A stretch of DNA of 62,559 nucleotides, the filler included, from Globobulimina sp. (taxonomy: Eukaryota), in NCBI GenBank assembly GCA_003354225.1. It is 13 parts of 13 records of this genome, joined end to end, with 100 filler letters (N's around TTAATTAATTAA, not from the genome) between each part and the next. Parts side by side here need not be neighbours in the genome. Positions count along the whole stretch, not along the records: positions 4,832 to 9,561 come from PIVH01000970.1; 12 more parts are not named here. One strand, 5' to 3'. The notes under the pieces were generated by a model. It had not been told where the DNA came from and made no database searches. It saw only the letters and a list, made by a program, of their open reading frames with translations. The position numbers and the translations under genes are program-made. How positions within the stretch are numbered: position 1 is the stretch's first letter; the number at the start of each line of letters is the position of its first letter. Below are positions 4,732 to 41,724 of this stretch, in pieces.

Positions 4732-4831
4732 NNNNNNNNNNNNNNNNNNNNNNNNNNNNNNNNNNNNNNNNNNNNTTAATTAATTAANNNNNNNNNNNNN
4801 NNNNNNNNNNNNNNNNNNNNNNNNNNNNNNN
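4732..4831. other. Artificial contig linker (N44-TTAATTAATTAA-N44), first of 12
   Basis: Identical 100-nt blocks with stops in all six frames at 4732, 9562, 14388, 19212, 24035, 28858, 33675, 38492, 43308, 48123, 52938 and 57750. Segment lengths fall from 4731 to 4710 nt, as expected for size-sorted contigs. Confidence 0.98.
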
Positions 4832-5014
4832 GCGTTTGGCTCATCCCGTGGGCCTTGCAAGTTTGGTAGAGTCGCCATTGTTAAGTTGACGAGTGAAAAC
4901 TAATTCGATTAGTGATTTTACTTTCAATTCACTTAAATGCACAAACTCTAATACAACATGAAAGAAATATTTAATATTATTTGCAACAGATTCAAAGTTT
5001 TTCCCAAGTCCGAG

Positions 5015-5323
5015 TTAATAGCTAAAGTTAGGCCATGTTGCATTTATTCTATCACAAACACAACAATTAGGCCACGTTTCATTTGAAATATCACACGAAC
5101 AGCAAGGAGCATAACTATTATTAGATCCTAATGCAATTTGAGATGCTCCCCAAATGCCTTGCGTAGATAATATTGAAACTGGATTCCCATAATTTTCCAA
5201 ATTACCATAACCAAAATCATCGGCATAAAGTATGATTATATTTGGCAGAAATCCAAGTGGTGTGGCAGCATAGAATATAGGCAACAAATTAAAATACAAT
5301 ATTGTAGTAAGTAGCTGAGACAT
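5015..5323 (-). CDS. Arylsulfatase-like mini-ORF lacking the catalytic core (102 aa; possible pseudogene)
   Basis: Signal peptide plus PNIIILYADDFGYGNLENYGNP (sulfatase N-terminal motif), joined directly to IWGASQIALGS...PCC...CCVC (like the ARSA C-terminus). No CxPxR motif. Confidence 0.65.
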   Translation of the reverse strand: MSQLLTTILYFNLLPIFYAATPLGFLPNIIILYADDFGYGNLENYGNPVSILSTQGIWGASQIALGSNNSYAPCCSCDISNETWPNCCVCDRINATWPNFSY

Positions 5324-5377
5324 TAGTATGTGAGACAAGATTAAAAAAAAACTCACAAGTGGACTTTATGACTTTTA

Positions 5378-6660
5378 TCAACGTAAATCGTCAGTAGCTG
5401 GATAATTTTCGTGTTTCTCAATAAAATCAGCAGTTTGTTGTATTTTTTTCCTAGCAGTACGCACTGCAGTTCGAATTTCATGAAAAGAGTCGGTACATTT
5501 TTCCCATTCCTCCTTAAAAAATGGATGTATTCTTTCATAGACGCCATGATTATCAAATATCCAATAAATGCTCATCAACGGATTAATAAACAATTTGCTT
5601 CCTCTGGTTCTTTGATTTCCAGCCCAGTGTTCATTGCCAAACTTGCCTTCAATGGATGTCAATATGCTGGAGCCAACGATGGATATCGAATGTTTCATAT
5701 ATTTGTAGCTGAATTCACTTGCTTCGCGGTAATAAATGCAAGGTTTTTGGTATGGTAAACATTGAATACATCCTAAATATGATTTGCTTTGCGTTAATTC
5801 AGCCATTGCTCGTAATGTACTCACATCAGATACGCCGTGATATCGATCTACGCCCATTCCTAAACATATTAAAAATTTATTGGTTACATTCTTGTTTTTG
5901 ATATTTTCCACACTAAATATCGAATTATAGTCTTCTTCGACTGTCCCAACACCAAATTCATTACCTTCAGGGCAAGTTATTTGAATATATTTATTTATAT
6001 AACAAAGCATTTTGAAATTAGTGTTGAAATTTTTAAGTAAATTGGATCTAAAAAATGCAGACAAAGTTTCAACATTAAATTTATGATTAAAATGCTTTGG
6101 TATTTATACATATACAATGTCAAATAACTACCTTTCATCAAAGAATCTGTTCCGCCATCAATTGTAATTACTGTATCAATATTTAATTTATCCACTAACA
6201 TTTCATACGCTGCACATAATGGTTTATAACCAAAATGAGGGAATGTATAAACTGGAACATCCAAATTTTGTTTCTCTTTAAAATATAATGATAAATAATA
6301 TTCGGGGAAGTAATTTTTCGATTTAACTGATTGGAAATAATCCACTTTGTCGGCGGATACTACAATGACTAATGGATCTTTATCATTTTTATCATACCAT
6401 TTCTCAAAACTTGGTTCATTTTCACAATCAGTAAATGTATAATTTGCTAAGAATACTTCATATCCCATATGAATGAGTGTAAAATATAATGGTATTCCTT
6501 GATAAATATCAAATCCTCCACCGCATCCACTTAGTAATATCCTTTTTGAATTTTTTATTCGATGCCAAAATGGCGGCTGGAGGGACATCAATGCATCGTC
6601 TTCTTGTTTTTGTTCTGTGCTATCATCAACTGCCTCCGTCTTTTTTTCAAACGAAGCCAT
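5378..6660 (-). CDS. DUF1152 family protein; 1 intron (5965-6131)
   Basis: ILLSGCGGGFDI, YFPEYYL, and after splicing DGGTDSLMKG-NEFGVGTVEED, then GVDRYHG, SIVGSSI, LFINPLMSIYW. A GT..AG intron restores the frame between ORFs 5995-6666 and 5378-6064. Confidence 0.85.
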
Positions 6661-6725
6661 GAACAAAGTTTAACGATATATAAGCTGACAGAAAATACTT
6701 TCTTTACTAAAAACCTTAAAAAAGC

Positions 6726-7459
6726 ATGTTTCGTTTAATCGTATTTATTGCATTATGTGCATCAACATTGGCTCACATGTGTTTATTAGCTCCATATCAA
6801 AGACCAGGATTTGTAAATTCTAGCTCATTGTCAAAAGCAGGCGCCGATGAATGTGGTATAACCGCAGGTACACAATACAGAATGAATGCGATTGAAACAA
6901 AACAATTCATTCGTGCGTTCAAACAAAAACTCCAATGGCAACATTGACAACATATATACGAAATTGTTTTGCTTCAATTGCAAATTGCAATGCATATATG
7001 CTATAGCACCATGTGGCAGTGTCCCGGCAAAAAATGTGAATGCTGTAATAATGAGTGAAATGGTAACGGTTGTAATGGAAAAAAATTTAGATCATTTTAT
7101 AAGTTCAAGCCCTGGTAATTTTACTGTGAGGTACTTAGTATTCTAAAACAAATGCGATTGAAACCAAAAAATGCGTATAGCTCAAACATATTGCACGAAC
7201 TACGAAATTGTTTTGGTTTCAATTGTAAATCGCAATTACTGTAAGTTTATGGACTGTCGGTGGTGAATTTGTTCGAGTTTTAGGTGTTGTTACGGACGAT
7301 GCGCGGCCATCCGGTTCATTGTATCAAGTACGTGTTAGCGTTCCCCACGAAGGCGGCCAAACTAAAGTCATTATCCAGGCTGTTTATTATACAAATAATC
7401 CAAATGCACCAGCAGCATTTTATCAGTGTGCGGATTTGGAAATTTATCCAAGAAATTAA
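6726..7459 (+). CDS. Small secreted His-brace (LPMO/X325-like) protein, 159 aa; introns 6868-7006 and 7131-7245
   Basis: Spliced product is MFRLIVFIALCASTLA|HMCLLAPYQR...ECGITAAPCG...NLDH...QAVYYTNN...FYQCADLEIYPRN. Exon lengths 142+124+214 = 480 nt. Confidence 0.7.
6886..7236 (+). repeat. Two copies of a short inverted-repeat element, one in each intron
   Basis: Left arms ATGCGATTGAAAC(A/C)AAA at 6886 and 7152. Right arms TACGAAATTGTTTTG..TTCAATTG.AAAT.GCAAT at 6957 and 7201. In each intron the arms are reverse complements with few mismatches. Confidence 0.85.
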
Positions 7460-7569
7460 TAATATGTATAATTATTAATTGTATTAATTTTTACATTTCT
7501 ATTAATTTTAATTTATCGCACAATGATTTCTACGCAAAATCGAACACCATAAGCCAGTGCGTGTAAGTT

Positions 7570-7681
7570 CACTAAACGATGAGTTTTAAATCGATATTTT
7601 GTATACGATTTATGCAAAGAAAATTTGCATTGGGTTTGCAAAGTGAATACAAACTGTTGTATCAAAACTCATCGTTAAGTG
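7570..7681. repeat. Intergenic inverted repeat (MITE-like)
   Basis: CACTAAACGATGAGTTTT (7570-7587) matches the reverse complement of AAAACTCATCGTTAAGTG (7664-7681) at 17/18. Confidence 0.7.
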
Positions 7682-7794
7682 GCGTAGCTTGACTGTACAT
7701 GCTCTAAAACGTCGTCATACTCTCGGACTTTAACAATTACATATATGTCAATAGAGAAAACAAAACAAAACAAGAAGGTTCGGTCATTAATAAA

Positions 7795-9227
7795 TTAATC
7801 CGCGGTCCTGCCATACGGACAAGAGAGAGACACAGGAATATTAATCAACATCCCATCAAATTCGGGCCTTATCCATATACAACAGCCCAACCTCGAAGTC
7901 GGTGTAATATGTCGAAATTTAACAAAGGCCAATCTCTCCCTCCAATCAAAAGGCGGTATCAAATGGAAATACTTTGGTGAAATATCCATTTGACATAAAT
8001 GGCACACGGGGCCGGCACCGTATATCCGCACAATCCCTCGATCATAGCCATTGCAATAACCATCGATCGGTACCAAATATCGACGGCAACATTGCAACAA
8101 TGTCTCCCCAACCATGCCATACACATAATATTTGGTACCCATCGCATCCACAAATATCAAACGCACAAAATCCTTCTCCTCCACTTTATCGTCAACAAAG
8201 GTTTTGATGGTGGACATTTCAATTTGTTTTCTAGCGAATTCCTTCCTCATTTTCTCGGGATCGGATGGGTTGATTTGCTCTTTCAATCTGGCGTTCCGCA
8301 CAGCGATTAATTCATCGCCGACCAACGGCCTCTCTTCGATGATATTGTTTTTTATCTGACATAAATCGTGTTTTTTTAACATATAAACGCTACAAAAATG
8401 CAGTTAGACGCATTTATACATTAACAAAACATCCATCACCTTATATGAGCCATACTTTTTGGCTCTTTTTTTCAAGTTCAACCGTTTTGTTTCGGTTTTG
8501 GTAGATTTATATTTATATTCAGTATCGCTGGAATATTCCTCTGTTTTCTCGTCAACAGAGACCTCCTCCTCGCTCTCTATCACGTTCTCGTCCTCTCGGT
8601 CTCCCAATATCTCCTCCACAATGTCCTGCCATTTGGCAGTCACATTTTCAAAATCTTGCGTTAATTCAGGCACTAAAGGCTTTAAACTACAAAGTGCGAG
8701 GATGTCAACGCAAAATCGCATAGCTATACGTGTATGGCACTAAACTGTGGGATGTTTCGCATCATTTCCAAATGCATCCCGATGTTATGCACTCGATAAT
8801 GATAATCGATGTCGTGGTTCATTGTGATATCGTCACAACCTCGTTTTGCGAGTGGCGACCGATATAAATCTGTATTGCCGTAGGCGCGTTCAACAAAATC
8901 AATATCGAAGTGTTGCATAAAGCGGTCGTTCCAAGGATGCCAATGAGTGCCTTGAGCCAAATCTTCCTCCAATACGTTGTCAAAGAGTATTTTGCGACCA
9001 TATGGCAAATCTTTACCTACGAATGGGTTTGGGTATGGATCGTCCAATTCTTCTTCAATTTGTTTGCTATTTCTGCCAGTTATGATTGGCTTTTTCATTG
9101 GCTTTGCATTGTTTGTTGATGCGTCATATGCATCCGATGTGGTGCGCAATATACGGATTGTAAATATAGGCAATGATACTGACTGTGTGAGCTTTGTGAT
9201 ACGGCTTTGTCTCAATCGAGAAAGCAT
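7795..9227 (-). CDS. Mitochondrial 2Fe-2S ferredoxin-like protein with long N-terminal extension (435 aa); introns 8687-8745 and 8390-8455
   Basis: Arg/Ser-rich presequence MLSRLRQSR. C-terminal adrenodoxin-type domain GETLL..IDGYC..GAGPVCHLC..TSRLGCCI..FDGMLINIP. Exons 482+231+595 = 1308 nt, in frame. Confidence 0.75.
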
Positions 9228-9662
9228 GGTATTCGATTTGATATTTGCACTGTGAAATATACTTCGCAAAAACATCATAGTAAAGCATGGATGACATGGA
9301 TGACAAACCGAATATAAAAAGAATATTCGTTGCGCTCACCGAAGGTGGTCTCAGTGGGAAATATACCGAAGACACGTGCGGCATTGATCTGTCCGAGGCG
9401 TTTTTCCAATTTATCATCGAAGAAGAGGTCATGTTTTGTGTAATCCTGTTGCAATGCGTACAAATAATAAGCATATAACTATACACAGTTTGATGATGAA
9501 CAAATACCGGCAGAGTTTGGAGACGGTGCCGAGGAAGAATCTTTTTTTATGGATTGGTCAGNNNNNNNNNNNNNNNNNNNNNNNNNNNNNNNNNNNNNNN
9601 NNNNNTTAATTAATTAANNNNNNNNNNNNNNNNNNNNNNNNNNNNNNNNNNNNNNNNNNNNA

Positions 9663-11568: not shown

Positions 11569-14387
11569 ATGTCCTCCAGACACAAAAAGGTATCTTATTC
11601 GTGTACTGCATATAACATATGTTTGTATGTTGTGTAATAGCTTCGTGTAATCCATGTTCACTTTGGAGGTCAGGTGATCGAATTTGAAATGGAAAAAAAT
11701 CTGAATAAATGGGAAGGAAATAATAAAATGTGGAACAGATTCCTAAAATCTGTGAAATCAAAATTTAAATTAAAAACTTCATTTGCTATTTATGATCCAA
11801 ATGATGATATGTTTGTTGATGATATGGATGATCTTTGTGGCTGTTATATTGGTTACGAAGTTGATTATAATTTCATTCTATCCCTACACGTCAAAGTTAA
11901 GACAATTAAATCAAAAACACTTAAAATTAAAATAAATTTTAAATGTTTATAACTCAAACAAAAAAAGGCTGAAAAAGAGCCGCTGAAATCCACTGTAAAA
12001 ACCACCAAAAAGCCATTATTTAATATTCCATCATTATTAACCAAAGACATCGATGAAAATACATCGCCAAACAACGATTTAATTGAAAATATGTCAGAAT
12101 TACAATTAAAGCCTATGGCAGAAATCAAGGCTGAATTAGGAGTCTCGCGGAGAAAATCGCGTCGGTTATCGATCGATTTTGGATTATTCAATAACAATGA
12201 AACCAATTGTTATATAAATACAGTATGGTTAGAATTTGGAGCAGCGAGAATTAAAAAATGCGACCATTTAAATCGTTTAATATCTGGTTTGCGGTATTAC
12301 AGCAACTTAGAAATTGGCAGCAACGATATCGATAAGGATGAATTTAATAATTTCTTTGATGATATTTATTGTAATATGTTGGACGATTATTTGCATGTAA
12401 TAACGCAACATAGTAATGACTCAAAAGAGATTTATGATTATTTACAAAATAAATGCCATTTAAATATAAATTGTAATGTCCGCATTTGTCCGTTTATACA
12501 GCGACATTTCCAGCAGAAACATGACGATGATCCATGGATAAATTTCTATATTCAAACCTACGATTCGTTGCATTTTTGGTTATTTCATTTATTTGACATT
12601 GGACTGAGGTCTGTAAAGTTAAAAAAAGATATTTCAAACAATCAAAAAGAACATAAAAACGAAGAGGATGATTATGTTTGTTATGACACACAATTTGCGC
12701 AAATGATAAGTGCAATACGTACAAAAAAGAGGGACACGAATTTTTTAACGAGATATAATAAAATAAATAAATACGATTTGAATTTGAGTTTAACAGCAAA
12801 TGTAATCCAACATAAATCCATTGATTGCGAGAGATTGACATTTAAAGATTGTTTAATGTTTCATTTGCAAAAAACAATCAAACACAAGTCACAGTTACAG
12901 AAATTTAATATGTTTATAAACAAAGAAGGCTATGACAGTGACGCCATAATGCAAGACATTGATTATGGCCATGGTGCATTTAGTAATATTTGCAATGTCG
13001 TCAAAAATAAACAATGTTTACATCAAATCAAGCAATATATTAAAAATACAAAATGTATGTTTCTATAAAGTGTTTCTATGACTATGTACATTGCAAAAAA
13101 AACTAAGATGAATGCAAATAATGTAATGAAATGTAACCGGTTTTGTTTGGATTTTATCTAAATGTATACGCAAAATATGCAGTGTCATTGGTATCATCCA
13201 CTTTTAATATCGGATTGATATTTTATTATTGGCCATATTACAAGAAAGAGAAAGAGGACTTATACGTAGAGATGAAACATGATACATTTAAACAGGAAAT
13301 CCTCGCTTATGGATGCATCAATATTTGGCAATATAATAATTTAATTGTGTTAAAAGCCAAACAATACCAACAAACAAAGGTTGCCAAACAAATAACTATT
13401 AAATTTAATCCGCATTTACATTTTGATGTCGATTTAGGTGTATTAACACGCGAAAATTTCATTGCCTTAGTATTATATACAGATTTTGAACAGGTATCAA
13501 AAGAGTTTGTATCGACATTTAAACAAATTCGATTGAATGAGTCCTTACAAAGCATAAAAACACGTAATCAAAAATATTGGTGGCTGTCAAAGACGATCCG
13601 TGAAACCGTACAATATTTTGGGGATAATGGAAGTCCATCGGGTCAATATGTAAAAGGACCATTTTATACGCACATACCATCCATAATAAATATCTCAGAA
13701 TTCAATATTTCATTATGTTCACCAGTATCAACCTCAAAACAAATAGAAGTTATTACCCGGTTTAGTTTGAATATTAATAATAAGAACGGATTAATTATGC
13801 AATTGAACAATAACGGCGATTATCAAAGTGCACGCTATTTACGCTCATTTAATATTGGTTGGATCTCGAAATACAAAGAAGAGGAAGAAATATTATTCAT
13901 TGGCGGCGACCATAAGATTAGAATTGAAACTATAAAAATTATACAGACCAAACAGAATTTTAGCAAATATTTTGCTGCCTTATTTGTATTTGATTGTATG
14001 TGTAATGGATATGATATGGACGATCATAGTGAGCCTGACACAGAAGAAAGACCATTGTCACCGCAAAGAAAAGGTAGAGCTGCATCCACAAAGCCTGCAT
14101 CGTCGACATCCAAAAAGATGTTTTTCAGTTCACTAACAAAACAAAAATCATTTAAATCATCAGACAATGTGGCTGAAAGTAGAGAAAATGGTGAGAATAA
14201 AGAACAGGAAAAAAGTTTCAATTATGAAATTATTTGGGCTTTAATTGAGAATAAATTGGAAAATAAATGCATTCCAAAGAATTCAATCCCTTTATATATA
14301 ATTAATTCATTTAATGCATTTTGTCGCAATAAAAAAGTAATCACATTAAATTTATTTTATTTATTTAAAAATTTTAAACAATATATT
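11569..14387 (+). CDS. Multi-exon protein with C-terminal ADP-ribosyltransferase-like domain, 3'-partial; introns 11590-11640, ~11896-11967, 13055-13182
   Basis: GT..AG introns join ORFs 11674, 12091 and 13143 in frame. ART-like motifs: ALVLYTD, GPFY, PVSTSKQIEV (STS), ISKYKEEEEILF (ExE). The second intron acceptor is uncertain. Confidence 0.65.
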
Positions 14388-36447: not shown

Positions 36448-38491
36448 ATGGCGAGCCATCCTTTAGTAACCAACAACTCCTCCATTTTATCGCTATTTAC
36501 CAGCGTCAACAATCGCTCACAATCGACGCAATTGCAAGAAAAGGAGATGGTGTACAGAGAGGGCTGGGTGTTTAAGAAAAGCAGCATCTCGACTCAATAT
36601 AAGAAGCGTTGGATAGTGTTGAAAGGAACGAAACTGTCTTGTTATTCATCTGAAAATATCGAATATTATACCAACACTGAAACAATTCAAAAATTTAATT
36701 TATCACTGTACAGATTCAAAGTGCAAAAATGCCCATCATCCGCCTGCAAGTTTTTGTTGATCAACGAGTCGGTGACAAATGGTTCCAATATGGTAATATT
36801 CAAAACTTTGACAGATCGAAAAGGATTGCACAGAATGGATATTCAAATTGCAGGAAGCAATTATTTCTTGCAATTTATCCAAATACCGAGGATTAGCTCC
36901 GTTGTATTCCACATTTGAGAGTGCCATTGAACAGAATGAGAATGACAGCGACTCTGAGACTGAAACAGTCGACGACGATGATACAAAAACGCCCAATTCC
37001 GAGTTTGATGCATTCAGAATACGCTCAATTACAATATCATCGATGCACAAACCAATGATGAGCGAAGACCGTGATTATGATTCTGATGAATACATAGAAA
37101 ACGATGGCATGGCCACATCATTGCATATCAAGGTACTGAGAAACGGCAACTTTAACATTGCCGAACTAGCTCGAAAGCAATCTGTTATAATAAGTTGTGT
37201 TAAAAAACAAACAGATTGCTTTCAATATACATGACCACTTTGATAAACCATAAGATATTAACCCCACAAATTGACGACAAACTAAGCAATGTCCGACGGC
37301 AGCAAATCGAGCACGAAATAATAGAAACAGAGGAGACATATTTTCTGGGCATAGCGACATTATTGAACGAATTATTGATTCCAATGTTTGAGCAAAAGAT
37401 ACTTTGCGAGGACACCTATTTTAAAAAAATAACGTCGTCCATCCCTAACTTGGTTGCATTCCATGAGCTGTTCCTCGAACAACTGAGCGAAGCATATAAG
37501 TATTCCTACGAAGACGGCAAAGATGCGATCGAGTGCTGCAACACTCCCATCCCCGAACATAACAAATGTAAATCCATCGCGCAAGTCTTTAACCATCAAA
37601 ATAAAGAAGAATTCATATCCATTTATATCGAATTTATCTCAGAATACAAAAGCATTTTGGATTTATTTGGTGTTACATTTCGGGATAACGCAAAGTTGCA
37701 AACGTTCCTCAGGTAATATATATACTGTCCATACATTGTGCATATTTGTGGCACATTGCGCGTATATTCAGAGAGAAGAGGAAAAACATGAAACCACTGT
37801 CAAACTATTTGATATTGCCGGTTCAAAGGGTGCCTCGATATGTTTTATTATTGCGAGATTTGAGGAAAAATACAAATAAATGGTATCCGGATTACAGTGA
37901 TATTGAATGTGCGTTGAGATTGGTTCAGGAAATAGCTTCGGAAATAAATGAACGAAAACGGAAAATAGAAAATCAAACTCAATGTTTGCAAATTCAACAA
38001 TGTCTGACGAACGTAACCGAAACCATTGTGGATCAAAAACGAAAGTTTGAGAAACAATTTGTTTTTATAAAGAAAGAAAATAAGCGGCAACGCACTTTTT
38101 TTGTGTTTAATGATATGATCATCATTGCCAATAAGAATTGGAACGTTAAAGAAATCATAAAAAACATTCTTTGTGTTTGCATAAAATATGAGGAGGCGGA
38201 AAATGATACTGTTTTTACATTAATTTATGGAAATAGTGTCTGTTCATATTTTGCTGTGTCGTCAATGGAAATAAATGAGTTTAAGCATATTGTGACCCAA
38301 AATAGATTGTTGTTGATGGACACGGACGTTGCGGCAATGAACGGCAACAATGATATTCGGAGTAAAATACAGAAACAAAGAGATTCCAATTCCAAAGATT
38401 TTAAAATGCAGCAAACAAAACATTCACAATTAATATATTCAATGAAGGCGGCGTATTCTGATTATAAAGAGGAAAAAGGCAAAGCTCCATC
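36448..38491 (+). CDS. PH-DH(RhoGEF)-PH protein, 3'-partial; frame disruption near 36820; introns 37133-37254 and 37713-37771
   Basis: REGWVFKK..YKKRWIVL (PH), EIIETEETY, LILPVQRVPRYVLLLRDL and EINERKR (DH), and RTFFVFND (PH). Confidence 0.85.
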
Positions 38492-40420: not shown

Positions 40421-41724
40421 ATGTGTGGAGATTTTATTATTACCAGTTCGGATGGAAAAGTAGCAGTTGTCGGCAGGTCGATGGAAGTGGTTAAATTACC
40501 ATTTAAACCATTAATGTATTTTCAAAATAAAGGCAAACAATTTATATATGGACAAAATACAACGTTACGAAATAAATACGCGTATACTGCGATTGCGAAT
40601 GGTTTTGAAATATCAAATCAACCACTTCAAGTTGTAATGGATGGAATGAATGAAAGAGGACTTAGCTGCGATTTATTGTTTTTTCCGAAATTTTGTGAAT
40701 GGCCAATATTAGCACAAAAGCAAAATACAAATACCGATCCTCATTATGTGTTATGCTTTAATTTTGTTAATTATATACTTGGTAATTACAGTAATATCGA
40801 TGAAATAATCACTGCTTTCAAACAGAAGAAAATCTATGTTTATGCTGATAATAAAGGAATTGCACAAAGTTTTTTTACTACTCATTATCAAATATTTGAT
40901 AGAAGTGGGAGAGGAATAATAATAGAATACAGTAAAAGCAATGAAGATTTAGTGATTAGTCCATTAAATAAAAGTAATCTTACCCTGAATGATAAAGACG
41001 AAGGTTGTTGTTTACCGTTTCTTGGTTTGGCAAATAAAATTAAAGATGATGGCTTTAATAATTTAAATATTTATGAATCATGTGGTGTTATGACAAACGC
41101 ACCGCCATATAACTATCATTTATGGAATCTGAACCAATATGCGCATCTCTCAAATATGGTAGCAAAAGATGTAGAAAATAAAGAAAATGGTCAAGGCGGC
41201 GGAATGTTGGGTTTGCCGGGCGATACAACCCCGCCTTCGAGATTTATCAGAATAAAAATTGCCAAAGATAATGTCGAGAAAGAAGGAATGGCACAAAATA
41301 TTGGTGATGCATTAAAGAGTGCATGTCATATTTTAAATAGTATTGACATTGTTAAAGGCATCTCAAAAGATGCAAATAATACGTACGATTTTACAAATTG
41401 GATTATTATCAAGGATTTAAATAATTTGAAATGTTATTATCGATCATATGACGATGCTGGATTTAAGGTATTCTTCTCACTCACTCACATTCGCAAATAT
41501 TTGAATAAATCCAAGATCACTCAGTATATACAAGTAAATCTGCCAATATACTGTACATACTTTTTTTTTTAAATATTTGCGAATGAAATGTGTAGAGTTA
41601 TGATTTTAGTGCATGGATTATGACTAAACCAAAGGATGGTGATAAAATTGAAGATTTATCACAATATGAAACAGTGGTTGCTAAATGGTCTGATATTAAT
41701 GACGCGTACGTAACTTTTAAGTGA
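40421..41724 (+). CDS. Choloylglycine hydrolase / penicillin V acylase family Ntn-hydrolase; intron 41468-41595
   Basis: Met-Cys start (nucleophile), GRSME, DGMNERGL, GVMTNAP, GLPGDTTPPSRF, T.W..IKDL..YYRSY. Confidence 0.92.

Follow-up and report, generated by a model that had tools for sequence, protein, structure and literature searches.

Two introns of one small gene of Globobulimina sp. were found to carry copies of the same inverted-repeat element. How introns are born is seldom seen directly, and pairs of related introns at non-homologous sites are one of the few such traces; the present pair is in several respects a clean case, from Rhizaria/Foraminifera, with verified splicing, unrelated exons and a small, highly expressed gene. 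The best reading of this arrangement is a duplication within the same gene, either of a foldback element or of an intron, that is, a local event; we hold this reading with slightly less than even confidence. The window, by which we mean the whole stretch of DNA analysed (62,559 nt), consists of 13 unlinked contigs of 4710-4731 nt, arranged in order of length and joined by 100-nt spacers (N44, TTAATTAATTAA, N44) at 4732-4831, 9562-9661 and 10 more places. Open frames or inverted repeats crossing these spacers are artefacts, and the finding lies within a single piece, 4832-9561.

The gene and its parts, with the runs (X2, X5, X6) and the database protein (P0004) in which its junctions were observed, are as follows.

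6726..7459, plus strand: host gene, BIM1-like / LPMO-like putative copper-binding protein, 3 exons, 160 codons
6726-6867, plus strand: exon 1 of the host gene, beginning at ATG 6726
6868..7006, plus strand: intron 1, 139 nt, phase 1, GTAC...TATAG; spliced joints in X2 and X5; P0004 junction ...GITA/APCG...
7007-7130, plus strand: exon 2 of the host gene
7131..7245, plus strand: intron 2, 115 nt, phase 2, GTAC...TGTAAG; spliced joints in X2 and X6; junction ...NFTV S LWTV...
7246-7459, plus strand: exon 3 of the host gene, ending with stop TAA

In-silico splicing by these coordinates gave an open frame of 160 codons, and 156 of 157 residues were identical to P0004. A contig of X2 (579 nt, depth 170) joined 6865>7005 and 7128>7244, skipping exactly 139 and 115 nt; when the cut is placed 2 positions further on, the joints have GT..AG ends and the skipped segments are exactly the predicted introns. 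The joint of intron 1 was also observed in run X5, and that of intron 2 in run X6. These three runs were classified as RNA-like by their behaviour, namely, exon-only cover and spliced joints. The spliced joints and P0004 together confirm that both introns of the original prediction are real, with the lengths, phases and GTAC starts that it gave. In the DNA-like run X1, one contig of 1753 nt spans 6400-7636, introns included. This contig differs from the window at four positions (6685, 6686, 7143 and 7166), all non-coding and none in exons.

The host gene is highly expressed, as judged from its summed contig depth of up to ~2x10^4 in X5, which is a poor measure of expression. Its protein carries a signal peptide followed by HMCLL, and with the start ...LAHMCLL, a histidine would be the first residue of the mature protein if cleavage occurs at the presumed site. 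P0004 matched the Pfam family PF20238 (BIM1-like_dom) weakly, with 21.8 bits where the cut-off is 27, whereas the relative P0010 reached the cut-off (27.2 bits); the host protein also matches LPMO_10 weakly. By tblastn, no paralogue of the host gene was detected within the window. At least three BIM1-like paralogues (P0004, P0005 and P0010) are named by a common scheme within one source and may therefore belong to a single data set. P0005 has a proline at the position of the mature-start histidine found in the other paralogues, and transcripts of host-gene paralogues are also contained in X2 and X5.

The element shared by the two introns was delimited as follows.

6885..6991, plus strand: element copy 1, 107 nt; left arm 6885-6907, loop 6908-6956, right arm 6957-6991; nhmmer E 2.1e-30; covariance model 134 bits
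7151..7236, plus strand: element copy 2, 86 nt; left arm 7151-7172, loop 7173-7200, right arm 7201-7236; nhmmer E 2.1e-21; covariance model 98.4 bits

A fixed succession of motifs had been described for both introns, and this layout and its spacing were confirmed from the sequence. ATGCGATTGAAAC begins 18 nt past the donor of intron 1 and 21 nt past that of intron 2; TCAAACA follows at 6919-6925 and 7182-7188, respectively; and the right block TACGAAATTGTTTTG..TTCAATTG.AAAT.GCAAT occupies 6957-6991 and 7201-7236. The arms stand in the same order in both introns, with an aligned identity of 20/23 columns for the left arm and 32/36 for the right, and the alignment score of each arm was reached by none of 1000 shuffles. 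Local alignment of intron 1 with intron 2 gave a score of 50, which 0 of 2000 shuffles reached; among 1028 tiles taken from both strands of the window, the highest score was 31. Likeness outside the arms was at chance level, being equalled by 122 of 1000 shuffles for the loops, 759 for the 5' ends and 889 for the 3' ends. The likeness of the two introns thus sets in 18 nt (intron 1) and 21 nt (intron 2) past the donor and stops 15 and 9 nt short of the acceptor, and the parts of the introns outside the element amount to 32 and 29 nt. The shared GTAC start adds little, as the five verified introns of the window start GTAC, GTAC, GTAG, GTAA and GTAT.

The flanking exons, claimed to be unrelated, were indeed not significantly alike (59 to 714 of 1000 shuffles). 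Since they are not duplicated, segmental duplication is excluded. The right arm exceeds the left, its reverse complement having about 7 extra bases in addition to a 10-nt tail ending in GCAAT; as this holds for both copies, both have the same polarity relative to the gene. The two copies thus lie in one gene of 734 bp, 265 bp apart and in the same orientation. Target-site duplications were looked for by eye at the ends of the element, where likeness stops (TA, TAA/TTA and direct repeats of 2-9 nt), and none was consistent between the copies. ATG flanks copy 1 only, and short target-site duplications could have decayed.

Pairing of the arms with each other, also part of the original prediction, was observed in both copies. 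In copy 1, 6887-6907 pairs with 6962-6982 (21 nt, 90% complementary), and in copy 2, 7153-7169 pairs with 7211-7227 (15/17 paired), giving a stem of ~20 bp in each. The element therefore has terminal inverted repeats, as DNA-transposon introners and MITEs do. The predicted RNA folds were moderately better than those of shuffled sequences, with -29.0 kcal/mol (z -2.44) for intron 1 and -22.7 kcal/mol (z -2.60) for intron 2. In the MAFFT alignment of the two copies, 90.5% of the pair cells are standard pairs, and no pair is changed on both sides, that is, covariation was absent. Copy 2 has one additional C in its left arm and one additional G in its right arm, which might represent a compensated insertion; this reading depends on the alignment and was not counted as covariation. 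The X1 contig carries A>C at 7166, a stem base in the left arm of intron 2, and this allele is a hint against a strong constraint on the stem. The arms are ~90% identical, whereas loops and intron ends are alike only as expected by chance; this leaves a constraint on the arms or an origin of the two copies from different source elements.

No third copy was detected in ~61 kb by pattern, nhmmer or covariance-model searches. Over these 61 kb, the arm patterns at up to 3 mismatches gave, beyond the two copies, one match each with 2-3 mismatches, as expected by chance; nhmmer gave only matches of E >= 1 after the two copies and their own reverse-strand matches; and the covariance model with a 21-bp stem gave, after reverse-strand self-matches, a next hit of 18.6 bits (E 0.19). 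In X1, the depth in the bins over both elements was no more than that of the one contig covering the locus (6.64), and no near-identical copy was seen. As positive control for copy detection, the following neighbour was used.

7570..7681, no strand: MITE-like element, 112 nt, with 42-nt inverted arms (CACTAAACGATGAG...), between two convergent genes, 110 nt past the host-gene stop; fold z -6.06

At 7575-7668 within this multi-copy element, the summed depth in X1 was 155-168, spread over several contigs, against 6.64 elsewhere (~25x single-copy), indicating that near-identical repeats are detectable in this run. The sensitivity of X1 is nevertheless low: copy 1 was not placed on copy 2 (0 two-place fits), so that equally diverged copies would be missed, and 61 kb is a tiny sample. 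An exact scan with the degenerate right-arm pattern gave 0 and 0 matches in collections of viral and prokaryotic contigs.

The age of the introns was examined at homologous loci. One metagenome scan gave three such loci (L001-L003), and an intron at either host-gene position (residues 47/48 and 88/89) was absent in all three. All three loci are distant, with 36-47% identity. L001 (30% G+C) has introns after ...QRGG and ...PPSVA and reads through both host-gene positions. These introns of L001, at 191-305 (~115 nt, GTACGT) and about 400-754 (~355 nt, GTATGT), contain no notable inverted repeats. In L003, a single gap of ~158 nt was observed, near residues 67-73, and the host-gene intron positions are uninterrupted; L002, continuous over residues 13-159, may be intronless or a transcript. 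The absence of the introns in L001-L003 is consistent with their gain in this lineage and, as the relatives are distant, would support recency only weakly.

The two introns were set against other introns and repeats of the window, for which only introns backed by RNA-like contigs or homologues were counted (n=5 verified), as automatic joining of open frames was too noisy. The features concerned are listed below.

5965..6131, minus strand: intron of the neighbour gene, 167 nt, phase 1; P0131 (371 aa) reads ...DSLMKGNE... across the junction; the gene is divergent, with 371 codons
37133-37254, plus strand: putative phase-0 intron, 122 nt, just before a RhoGEF domain; starts GTAC; 14-bp perfect stem, z -4.69
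41488-41585, plus strand: inverted repeat, 22 nt, 91% complementary, straddling the stop codon of a choloylglycine-hydrolase-family gene

The intron of the neighbour gene is an end-to-end hairpin with arms of ~40 nt, and none of 200 shuffles matched its fold (-30 kcal/mol, z -3.63); in sequence, this intron has no relation to the shared element. Introns of 55 and 73 nt were mapped with P0281 in an acyl-CoA synthetase gene, and both are unstructured (z +0.42 and +0.99). The verified introns therefore fall into short, plain ones (55 and 73 nt) and three long ones built around stems (115, 139 and 167 nt), a contrast that rests on five introns. Plain introns of 55-73 nt against stem-built introns of 115-167 nt suggest a rule that long introns are tolerated here only if folded. 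For the putative intron at 37133-37254, an in-frame ATG at 37231 permits a two-gene reading instead.

The presence of two copies in one gene is the strongest clue to the origin of the element and points to a local process. Local intron copying, which the original prediction had offered as an alternative, fits best with both copies being in one gene and with the lack of a third in ~61 kb. We infer the following course, which concerns the direction and mechanism of the copying, the order in which introns and element arose, and what the stem does in splicing. A foldback (inverted-repeat) element of 86-107 nt occupies the interior of both introns, and one intron, or its palindromic core, would have been copied to a site ~265 bp away within the same gene; by an alternative local route, the foldback element may have hopped nearby. 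The copy may have survived because it was located in an intron, or it may itself have made an intron. The stem would loop out ~75-96 nt and leave ~40-43 nt of each intron unpaired. Such a remainder would be close to or below the length of a plain intron, and the distance between donor and branch site would then be as in a short intron, so that a spliceosome used to short introns could pair the two. Shortening by the stem would account for the palindromic form of the inserts that have survived in introns here. One observation fits same-gene duplication poorly: a single neutral copying should give even divergence, and the likeness is in the arms only.

Same-gene duplicated introns are known from fungi, where 82 were reported in 11 of 24 species, half of them without exon duplication, and they have also been reported in Caenorhabditis (Collemare et al. 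2013, PMC3609843, as given in the available part of the text). The present pair resembles these in that similar introns occur at different positions of one gene, as a rare, low-copy event and with exons that are not duplicated in the data at hand, as in half of the fungal cases. The likeness here is partial. Fungal pairs, as that part of the text describes them, are almost the same throughout the intron, are no longer than other introns and have no unusual stability, whereas here only the arms are alike (~90%), and the introns are about twice the plain length and structured. If no wider family exists, the gene would be a tidy example of same-gene duplication of an intron or element.

The original prediction had interpreted the two introns as introner candidates. 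As a true introner, the element would be a non-autonomous DNA transposon with inverted ends, one of a family spread through the genome and making an intron wherever inserted. We consider a true introner unlikely, although part of the interpretation stood: the sites are non-homologous, and one inverted-repeat element is shared between them. The inverted arms and the intronic copies in different phases agree with it, and similar introns in non-paralogous contexts, as a published introner screen asks for, are what the unrelated exons and different phases represent. The absence of the introns in 3/3 distant homologues is in line with it as well. Fungal introner-like elements of Dothideomycetes are described, in the available text of PMC3609843, as twice as long as regular introns and stable in structure; likewise, both introns here are about 2x plain-intron length (115 and 139 nt, the plain ones being 55 and 73 nt) and structured (z -2.4 and -2.6 against +0.4 and +1.0), albeit in a small sample. 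With a leftover of only 32 and 29 nt against plain introns of 55 and 73 nt, the element is most of each intron. Likeness in the arms only is as observed in families with shared ends and variable interiors, and copies from different sources would imply a larger family, which keeps the introner reading alive.

Against an introner are the extent of likeness, the two copies observed so far and the lack of a visible target-site duplication. The introner screen of Gozashti et al. (2022, bioRxiv 10.1101/2022.06.06.494994), in the part of the preprint available, asks that likeness begin no more than 5 exonic or 10 intronic bases away from each boundary of each intron and that a family have at least 4 introns, and takes interior-only likeness as secondary insertion. 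In the present pair, 1/4 boundaries qualifies and 3/4 lie beyond the 10 intronic bases. The observed family has two members in the 61 kb covered and no near-identical one in X1, while the nearby MITE is multi-copy there. By eye, no target-site duplication was seen at the element boundaries. Under dispersed insertion, two insertions in one 734-bp gene would be very unlikely. The comparison with introners of Dothideomycetes, algae and dinoflagellates leads to the same division: in the parts of PMC3609843 and bioRxiv 10.1101/2022.06.06.494994 available, these are likewise long, with stable predicted structure, some inverted ends and lineage-specific positions, but they form families of four to thousands with likeness up to the splice sites and, in many cases, target-site duplications, whereas here two copies are alike in the interior only, and no such duplication was seen.

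'Rhizaria', 'foraminifer' and 'Reticulomyxa' are absent from the available main texts of two large introner surveys, of which the supplements may list such taxa, and the titles and abstract starts of the literature on foraminifera introns gave no report of introners in foraminifera. The interpretation of the original prediction is partly supported, and we take the pair as same-gene duplicated, introner-like, hairpin-bearing introns in a lineage for which no such report was found. Should a genome-wide family exist, introners would be extended to a new supergroup and by a variant dependent on a hairpin.

An ordinary MITE or foldback repeat, mostly intergenic elsewhere, might instead have entered two older short introns independently, which we regard as decidedly unlikely. 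Intronic MITEs and foldback elements are likewise small and non-coding, with inverted arms and a variable interior, and palindromic repeats are common in this genome, as those at 7570-7681 and 41488-41585 indicate. Interior-only likeness is in addition the mark of secondary insertion in introns according to the available text of bioRxiv 10.1101/2022.06.06.494994. The present element differs from them: a target-site duplication was not seen, nothing pointed to a high copy number (no other copy in 61 kb, no near-identical one in X1), and both copies lie in one gene. Moreover, the 29-32 nt remaining of each older intron would fall below the length of every verified intron here (55-167 nt), and the distant homologues have no old intron at either site. 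Two independent insertions in ~250 nt of intron would need local hopping, by which this explanation merges with same-gene duplication.

A broader proposal is that foraminifera hold palindromic 'hairpin introners', foldback elements that would make spliceable introns without target-site duplications and spread nearby, with splicing dependent on the stem in a machinery tuned to ~60-nt introns. Both host-gene introns, the hairpin intron of the neighbour gene and perhaps the putative intron at 37133-37254 would be products of such elements; we consider this speculative and quite improbable. If true, it would be a parallel, in a distant supergroup, to the symmetrical introns of Hypoxylaceae (Fekete et al. 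2021, PMC8469720), an example of hairpin introns that have multiplied and lack flanking duplications. In the available part of that paper, these (stw)introns are spliceosomal, with long inverted repeats forming a hairpin and no flanking duplications, and a spread other than by classical transposition is proposed; these traits are close to those of the present element. The repeats of Hypoxylaceae are terminal, 45-55 nt long and present in scores of copies, whereas the arms here are 23-36 nt and internal. Judged by the same part of the paper, the 167-nt neighbour intron (5965-6131) is closer to the architecture in Hypoxylaceae than the shared element is.

That the two hairpins are functional RNAs, such as small-RNA precursors or structures in splicing or regulation, forming a two-member intronic cluster under selection, is in our view very unlikely. 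Conserved arms with free loops are the usual pattern of hairpin RNA paralogues, the stems are ~20-21 bp, and the host gene is highly expressed in X5 as far as contig depth, a poor measure, can indicate. However, the Rfam search gave 9 matches at E <= 10 and none at the gathering score (best mir-787, 23 bits against 57), no box C/D or H/ACA motif was found in the hairpins by eye, covariation was absent, and a stem base varies in the X1 allele. Chance resemblance of AT-rich introns is excluded and has a vanishingly small probability: G+C is 26-40% in 2-kb windows and ~31-32% around the host gene, and weak inverted repeats are frequent, but 0/2000 and 0/1000 shuffles reached the observed scores, the best unrelated tile scored 31 against 50, and the arm blocks are collinear.

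Some additional candidates were noted in the window. A hairpin intron at 41468-41595, around the inverted repeat of the choloylglycine-hydrolase-family gene, was dropped as evidence, since the read-through tail fits the C-termini of homologues (12 of 120 tails inspected), by our reading, and the putative second exon matches best to an upstream motif. Crude tail scores favour the putative second exon (mean 22.4 against 18.4, higher in 84/120), and the case is therefore ambiguous. A putative 128-nt intron at 13055-13182 is unstructured (z +0.71), indicating that not every long candidate need hold a stem. In the gene downstream of the host gene, a probable intron of ~43 nt (8684-8726, minus strand) contains ATGCGATTTTGCG, which resembles the left arm of the element, probably by coincidence. 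The acyl-CoA synthetase of the window is 75% identical to a foraminifer protein (MMETSP, 'Ammoni...'), and the other best relatives are proteins from protist transcriptomes.
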